Positions 41,514 through 42,374 of a DNA stretch of 64,000 bases are shown piece after piece; position 1 is the stretch's first letter; the number at the start of each line of letters is the position of its first letter. Made by a program: the position numbers and the translations under genes. The notes beneath the pieces were generated by a model that was given only the letters and a program-made list of their open reading frames with translations, ran no database searches and was not told where the DNA came from. The stretch is taken from positions 1-64,000 of the IMG/VR virus record IMGVR_UViG_3300014208_000024; one strand, written 5' to 3'. This DNA comes from a virus. Taxonomy: Duplodnaviria > Caudoviricetes.

Positions 41514-42250
41514 AAAACCCTGAGATTATAGGTTTAGTGAGTCAACTTTCGGGGGATTATTGGTTCCCCACCTTATCCACATACCTTGCGGCATGTACCA
41601 ACTCAATCTCGATTGGTTAGACCAATCACCTCTTTCGTCATAAACTACTCTACTGCTACTACCGCCATAACAAGAGTGCCCCCCTGCCATAACATTTCAC
41701 AATAATCCGTTAAACCTTGCGAGTCAAACGTCCCCAGTTCAACCGAAGTTGCCAGGATCTGAGAGACCTTTCGCCTATAACGCCAGCGGAACTTTTGCTT
41801 GCTTGAATTTTTTTCATAAAATTGAAGTTGTGCTTTTAATTGAAGATGTGCCGCTGGAACAGCTTCGTTCCTTTTGGGAACGAAATACTATACACCCTCT
41901 GCGCCCTTTTGCATCGGTACGCTCTCACCTTCGCCGCCCTGTAACTCTTACGAGAACGAGAACTCCAAAGATAAATGGAACACGCTCTAAAGCTTGCTAA
42001 ACCTTGAACATTATTCCTCGGCTTTTCCTATTGCCCCTTTCGGAGATCAACCGCCTCAAGCACTTCAGAGACGATATTTCACTCAGCAGTTGCCCTTGTG
42101 AAATGTACTAACCTATTGTATGCTCGACTTCTTTTCAAAAGCGACAAGATATTAACCTCGCCTTTATCCTGGTCACCCAGTTTATTTTCCTGACCCTTTC
42201 GGATCAGGCTTGACCACCAGTAGGTTGTCAACGACAGCACACTGCCATAA
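41514..42250 (-). ncRNA. Large (~730 nt) structured ncRNA, GOLLD/ROOL-class candidate
   Basis: GC-rich island with many GNRA/UUCG hairpins, own promoter (42300-42326), boxA-like motif and downstream terminator (41479-41511). Confidence 0.65.
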
Positions 42251-42374
42251 ATTTTTTATCAATATTTTAAAGAACGTATCTTACTTAATTTTCTACTCTA
42301 TACGCAAAGATAAGAAAAAAGTTTCAAAAAAACAAGTTTTTTTTATTTTTTTTTTAAAAAACTTTTTTTAAGAG

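Follow-up and report, generated by a model that had tools for sequence, protein, structure and literature searches.

Our analyses indicate, with a probability of about 0.93, that the GC-rich island described here is the gene of a GOLLD-family RNA in a 372-kb phage, which spans about 42300 to 41517 of the minus strand and has an intrinsic terminator that ends near 41472. The window, by which we mean the whole 64-kb stretch of DNA that was analysed, opens a virus record of 372,283 bp, which is complete according to CheckV. GOLLD is among the largest non-coding RNAs of bacteria and phages, and it forms an RNA-only cage larger than the ribosome. The family is already known and the window copy adds little to it as such; new here are a mildly unusual combination of domains and a tandem arrangement with a small SRP RNA gene, which is conserved in a second huge phage (L073).

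The island stands out by its GC content, which is 40-45% over 41450-42200 vs 24-31% in the flanks. The open reading frames inside it, on both strands, span only 53-83 amino acids and gave no Pfam match at E<=1. Both results bear out the first-pass annotation, made from the letters of the window, which had described a GC-rich island without a credible open reading frame. The minus-strand fold of 823 nt has a predicted energy of -258.8 kcal/mol vs -216.9 +/- 7.7 kcal/mol for 20 shuffled sequences (z = -5.4). All four hairpins quoted in that annotation were found, on the minus strand, and the extent that it had given to the RNA (41514-42326) proved almost exact: 41514 lies 3 nt beyond the last Rfam-aligned base, and 42326 falls within the promoter, some 26 nt before the inferred start. 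Its estimate of about 730 nt was too small: counted from the start, the RNA spans about 784 nt if it is measured to its last structured base, and about 825 nt with the terminator included.

A search of the whole window with Rfam 15 revealed a match to GOLLD (RF02032) at 41517-41900 on the minus strand, with 226.6 bits (gathering cut-off, 150 bits) and an E value of 6.8e-63, covering model positions 1-416 without truncation. A search of the whole 372,283-bp genome returned the identical match and no second copy. The RF02032 model represents the conserved 3' half only, and the roughly 400 nt upstream of the match (to about 42300) make up the variable 5' domain. From size and phage/tRNA context, the first pass had proposed either GOLLD or ROOL and had suggested an Rfam search to decide. 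GOLLD turned out to be right, with a match over the full model, and the context holds as well (a 372-kb virus record with 35 tRNA genes in the window). ROOL, group I and II introns and RNase P gave no match above the gathering cut-off, nor any at E<=1 when 4227 families were searched against 41300-42600. A permissive scan of the same interval returned, besides GOLLD, the neighbouring SRP RNA and one noise match. The earlier annotation had held that a strong Rfam match would make the RNA known rather than novel, and known is therefore what we call it. The features of the locus are as follows, R1 being a covariance model of the 5' core.

42370..42453, minus strand: small SRP (4.5S-like) RNA gene, a neighbour outside the GOLLD (RF00169, 42.3 bits, cut-off 40)
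42330..42335, minus strand: candidate -35 hexamer TTGTTT, preceded by an A-rich tract (aligned with TTGCTT in L073, 5/6)
42307..42312, minus strand: candidate -10 hexamer TATCTT, followed by TGC (6/6 identical in L073)
41517..42300, minus strand: GOLLD RNA, about 784 nt (RF02032 for the 3' half, model R1 for the 5' core, 81-87% identity to L073)
42261..42275, minus strand: conserved 5' leader motif GUUCUUUAAAAUAUU (identical in L073)
42190-42207, minus strand: quoted hairpin CTGATCC-GAAA-GGGTCAG (from the sequence)
41975..42117, minus strand: 5' domain core, with the GGGCAACUGCU hairpin, a GNRA hairpin and CAAUAGGAAAAG (R1, 35.6 bits, E 3.3e-8, full model 1-154)
41841..41900, minus strand: P13/P14 hairpin with A-rich loop CAAAA (TTCGTTCC/GGAACGAA; RF02032 positions 1-62)
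41864-41884, minus strand: quoted hairpin TTCGTTCC...GGAACGAA, within P13/P14 (from the sequence)
41783..41840, minus strand: J13/15, a variable A-rich linker of 58 nt with no tRNA inside (unpaired model positions 63-138, large gaps)
41517..41782, minus strand: conserved 3' core P17-P27, including P22 and P24 with its GCAA loop (model positions 139-416; 81% identity to L073)
41671..41686, minus strand: single P21 sub-hairpin, P21a-like, loop GGCA (P21b absent just 3' of it)
41611-41627, minus strand: quoted hairpin GATTGGT...ACCAATC, which is P22 (from the sequence)
41579-41597, minus strand: quoted hairpin TACATGCC-GCAA-GGTATGT, which is P24 with its GCAA loop (from the sequence)
41472..41511, minus strand: intrinsic terminator, a 14-bp hairpin followed by a T run (terminator scan; last hairpin of the minimum-energy fold)

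The 5' domain of GOLLD is less conserved than the 3' domain (10.1101/2024.12.08.627333). Using a pattern of the 3' domain alone, we fetched 13 GOLLDs from IMG/VR and compared the 450 nt upstream of each with the window. Collinear blocks common to the window and the 13 sequences (GAUAAAC..UAAAGG, GGGCAACUGCU, CAAUAGGAAAAG and GGUUC.A) were found, together with a 5' leader motif, GUUCUUUGAAAUAUU. With a second pattern, 65 loci were obtained that formed 20 clusters at 90% identity; relative to these the window is an outlier, with about 50% identity to all of them. A sequence-only nhmmer profile of the 5' domain gave its best match in the right place, at a marginal E of 0.063. Model R1 was built on the 154-nt 5' core of 19 cluster representatives of lake-type GOLLDs, with the window left out, and its match at 41975-42117 is collinear with the 3' match to RF02032. 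R1 also scored 33 bits on L073 and gave no match on a Streptococcus phage GOLLD. The lake-type 5' domain has a consensus fold of 89 pairs, 47 of which show double changes. The shared collinear blocks and the R1 match thus mark the 5' half as a diverged 5' domain of the lake type (lake/env-38 type).

Compared with lake-type GOLLDs from IMG/VR, and through these relatives with the env-38 GOLLD of a marine metagenome, the window has the core motifs of the 5' domain, but two elements are absent: about 23 nt of sequence (TGACAACUAAACAAAGUGGCUAC) and the outer stem that encloses the GGGCAACUGCU hairpin. Most lake-type GOLLDs have the 5' leader motif close to their 5' end in an almost unchanging form (GTTCTTTGAAATATT). 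A near copy of it (GAUCUUUGACAUAUU) occurs at 3875-3945 (minus strand) in the window, directly downstream of a tRNA-Gln gene, as a weak nhmmer match (E 3.7). The 5'-motif pattern at shorter spacing also picked up two metagenome contigs, L069 and L070, which we rejected as relatives, as neither carries an Rfam GOLLD or an R1 match. In L069 (111-176, minus strand) and L070 (588-653, minus strand), GGGCAACTGCT and CAATAGGAAAAG lie 43 nt apart, and these motifs could reflect chance or a different RNA that reuses them.

In the 3' domain, all helices (P13/14 and P17-P27) were aligned except P21b. The helix numbering, including the assignment of RF02032 positions 251-267 to P21b, was inferred from the text of two structure papers. 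These positions are gapped in both the window and L073, and a MAFFT alignment with 19 lake-type GOLLDs showed a 19-nt gap in the window at P21b, where the hairpin is kept in 19/19 lake-type sequences. P21b is also absent from the solved GOLLD of S. agalactiae and is therefore not obligatory. The loops that could be mapped are kept in the window, namely the A-rich L14, the central GC of L21a and the GCAA of L24; the L21a-like loop reads GGCA in the window and GGCG in L073. The J13/15 linker of L073 contains an additional hairpin of 20 nt. A search pattern for the compact 3' domain gave 0 matches in IMG/VR and GTDB genomes, a count that says little about the rarity of the compact form because the pattern also missed L073, a true relative.

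Searching IMG/VR for kin of this phage by proteins encoded next to the GOLLD (the 129-aa, 85-aa and release-factor open reading frames) gave no confirmed matches. L073 was found with a pattern from the adjacent SRP RNA and sits on an IMG/VR contig of 228,886 bp. In the direction of transcription, ten tRNA genes come first, then a small SRP RNA (47.2 bits) and, directly after it, a GOLLD (185.9 bits), all encoded on one strand. The flanking proteins are in the same order as in the window, at 39-70% identity. At the nucleotide level, the two phages are 93% identical in the SRP RNA, 81% in the GOLLD 5' domain (42246-41901), 87% in P13/14 and 81% in the 3' core, vs 42-44% in the outer flanks. The second huge phage thus conserves the whole GOLLD RNA far more strongly than the surrounding DNA. 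In the minimum-energy fold of the window, 53 of the 87 changed pairs stay paired in L073 (33-46 in slid controls), giving modest covariation support for the 5' fold from a single close relative. A two-sequence RNAalifold analysis (13 double and 39 single compatible changes, 0 broken) is biased by construction and was not used as support.

Contigs assembled from RNA libraries also match the locus. A freshwater metatranscriptome contributes two contigs that match 41520-41886, each with a single mismatch, and contigs from three other studies, 85-93% alike, cover 41830-42056 and 42069-42188, bridging the boundary between the 5' and 3' domains. These matches are consistent with expression; they are assembled contigs only and may derive from contaminating DNA. 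Contig cover in four RNA runs skips 40900-41500, 42240-42373 and 42440-42900, and absent cover is not evidence, so that these gaps support neither a greater abundance of the GOLLD than of its flanks nor the separateness of the SRP RNA and the GOLLD. Short matches from RNA runs at 42397-42434 are conserved SRP sequence of other organisms.

We weighed the assignment against three other readings of the island. If it held a large RNA of a different class, known or new (ROOL, an intron, RNase P or an undescribed one), that only resembles GOLLD, this would fit the weak sequence similarity of its 5' half to other GOLLDs and its RF02032 score, which at 226.6 bits is below those of the 13 other phage GOLLDs fetched here (264-302 bits). 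However, the match to GOLLD is full-length (E 7e-63), the 5' core fits an independent model of the GOLLD 5' domain, and among 4227 families no other large RNA matched at E<=1 in 41300-42600. The RF02032 match, the R1 match and the scan at E<=1 refute this reading for practical purposes. The chance that the island encodes a small protein is similarly close to nil: the frames of 53-83 amino acids on both strands are what speaks for it, but Pfam returned zero matches for them at E<=1, and the RNA model accounts for the entire stretch. Slightly less remote, and still very improbable, is a decaying, non-functional GOLLD remnant, in keeping with the loss of the conserved P21b hairpin and, again, with the low score. 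Against decay, the P21b-less form is kept in L073 although the flanking proteins are only 39-70% identical, and RNA identity is 81-87% vs about 43% in the flanking non-coding DNA. Furthermore, the S. agalactiae GOLLD folds and assembles into a 12-mer while lacking P21b (PMC12990946), and near-identical sequence is present in an RNA library.

The GOLLD gene also appears to carry its own signals for transcription. The -35 hexamer is weak (3/6 to consensus), and the 17-nt spacer between the two hexamers aligns with L073 ungapped at only 5/17 identical positions. Both hexamers align with the promoter position of lake-type GOLLDs (TTGACA-17-TAnnTT-TGT, with TAnnTT-TGT upstream of 19 other GOLLDs). 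Conserved hexamers around a diverged spacer of fixed length form the pattern expected of a working promoter. The placement of the -10 hexamer puts the predicted start near 42300. An alternative promoter, TTGAAA-19-TATAGA (42327-42297), was rejected because its -10 is unconserved in L073, and a loose count of sigma-70 motifs on the minus strand was uninformative in this AT-rich DNA. At the other end, L073 has a terminator in the same place, with a hairpin of different sequence and a T9 run. From these elements we infer that a sigma-70-like promoter (TTGTTT-17-TATCTT) and a terminator, both belonging to the GOLLD gene itself, delimit its transcription. The first-pass annotation had taken the RNA for a transcription unit of its own, and the conserved positions of promoter and terminator in the related huge phage lend this reading inferential support.

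The small SRP RNA gene, 70 nt upstream of the GOLLD on the same strand (5261-5348, minus strand, in L073), opens another possibility. Promoter-like hexamers lie upstream of the SRP RNA at aligned positions in the window and L073, and the terminator scan found no intrinsic terminator between the SRP RNA and the GOLLD, so that read-through into the GOLLD is possible. The GOLLD could then be the downstream part of a joint transcript with the SRP RNA, initiated at the promoter-like TTTACA-17-TATAGT (42489-42461) and later cleaved into two RNAs. The short distance, the shared strand and the conservation of the tandem in L073 all fit such a co-transcript, as does the maturation of 4.5S RNA from longer precursors. 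We nevertheless regard it as unlikely. Between the two genes, the window and L073 share a -35/-10 pair whose spacer has diverged in sequence but kept its length, a near-consensus promoter occurs at the same site in 19 unrelated GOLLD loci that have no SRP RNA, and in L073 a short U run after the SRP hairpin could stop part of the transcription. A GOLLD promoter of its own remains our preferred reading, and the tandem is conserved in a second huge phage together with the GOLLD promoter and terminator. Most of the aligned lake-type representatives combine a promoter close to consensus (TTGACA-17-TAnnTT) with GUUCUUUGAAAUAUU towards the 5' end. The lake-type loci also share a conserved block after the 3' end (UAUAC..CUUCCUUAACCUC).

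Two GOLLDs have been solved by cryo-EM. The env-38 GOLLD forms a D7 14-mer cage (PDB 9MEE) in which the 5' domains are the caps and the 3' domains the rings, and its half-shells are joined by two self-kissing loops (L21a and L21b) and one A-minor contact (10.1101/2024.12.08.627333). The S. agalactiae GOLLD is a 12-mer (PDB 9L0R) that lacks P21b among other elements (PMC12990946; 10.1101/2024.12.08.627333), and its 3' domain alone forms mainly a 10-mer (PDB 9LMF; PMC12990946). The window RNA shares with env-38 the two-domain layout with a variable linker and the complete RF02032 match of the 3' domain. In env-38, however, the P21b loop makes the self-kissing contact B9 between the half-shells, whereas the window has no P21b, as in S. 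agalactiae. A megablast-style search of annotated phages gave only a 77-nt match, to the GOLLDs of three Streptococcus phages. In one of these, phiARI0285-1 (KT337345; 78% identical over the 77 nt), the P21a/b region is shortened too, and P22 is identical to that of the window. The streptococcal 5' domain, in contrast, is of another type, in which the lake-type motifs are absent and R1 finds no match. Judged from these alignments, the window RNA appears to combine a lake-type 5' core with a streptococcal-type, P21b-less 3' ring.

By analogy with both solved forms, the 5' domain of the window RNA would fold as a cap and its 3' domain as part of a ring, and we would expect copies of the RNA to assemble into a closed RNA cage. 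As P21b is absent in the window and in the S. agalactiae 12-mer alike, the half-shells would presumably be joined as in the Streptococcus form. The copy number of the cage is not predictable from sequence. More speculatively, and at a low probability in our estimate, the window RNA and L073 may represent a hybrid GOLLD subtype, with an env-38-like 5' cap core, a Streptococcus-like P21b-less 3' ring and a cage copy number or closure unlike the solved forms; the conserved SRP tandem within a tRNA island could also reflect a functional link of the cage to translation reprogramming or membrane-protein targeting by the phage. With its mixed architecture, the RNA lends itself to testing how cage size depends on the two domains. 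ROOL RNA forms cages of 8 or 6 copies. It is likewise large, ornate, phage-associated and found near tRNA genes, and makes an RNA-only cage, but it is unrelated to the window RNA in sequence and fold and gave no Rfam match.

The 35 tRNA genes of the window, the SRP RNA and the GOLLD are all co-oriented. This RNA island is broken up by endonuclease-like open reading frames and adjoins one with an RF-1 domain. Descriptions of GOLLD usually place it close to tRNA arrays. Among 66 lake-type GOLLD loci (L002-L068, 626 kb), however, we found no tRNA genes, so the tRNA-island setting of the window GOLLD is closer to what the literature reports for mycobacteria and Lactobacillales than to the lake phages. 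The mycobacterial descriptions (PMC6582537; Morgado et al. 2020 via PMC12990946) place GOLLDs inside tRNA gene arrays, as here; some of those described there carry a tRNA inside the J13/15 linker, whereas the 58-nt linker of the window has none.

The GOLLD is thus placed in a very large phage that has much translation-related RNA of its own, with 35 tRNAs and an SRP RNA, as well as a release-factor gene. Together with the conserved SRP-GOLLD tandem, this gives a modest additional hint of where cargo or partners might be sought. This setting of co-oriented tRNA genes, SRP RNA and release-factor gene leads us to a tentative best guess, extrapolated from other family members, that the GOLLD cage might serve the phage in taking over translation or in handling its tRNAs; we consider such a role possible rather than probable.

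Functional annotation of the surrounding region yielded several further observations. The endonuclease-like open reading frames lie at 38372-39100 (plus strand), 44221-45027 (plus strand) and 45409-46311 (minus strand), with similarity to endonuclease VII, HNH, and TnsA-N with a NUMOD3 motif; they are probably homing endonucleases that invaded the RNA island. A tRNA match from Rfam at 47856-48007 (minus strand; 31.2 bits) spans 152 nt, far too long for a plain tRNA, and was not called by ARAGORN. ARAGORN did call a UAA suppressor tRNA (anticodon UUA) at 33634-33706 (minus strand), inside a cluster of Thr, His and Asn tRNAs. The open reading frame of 182 amino acids at 39069-39617 (minus strand) combines an RF-1 domain with just the last part of a PCRF domain, making it a shortened release factor, and its L073 homologue (52% identity) is found at the same relative position.
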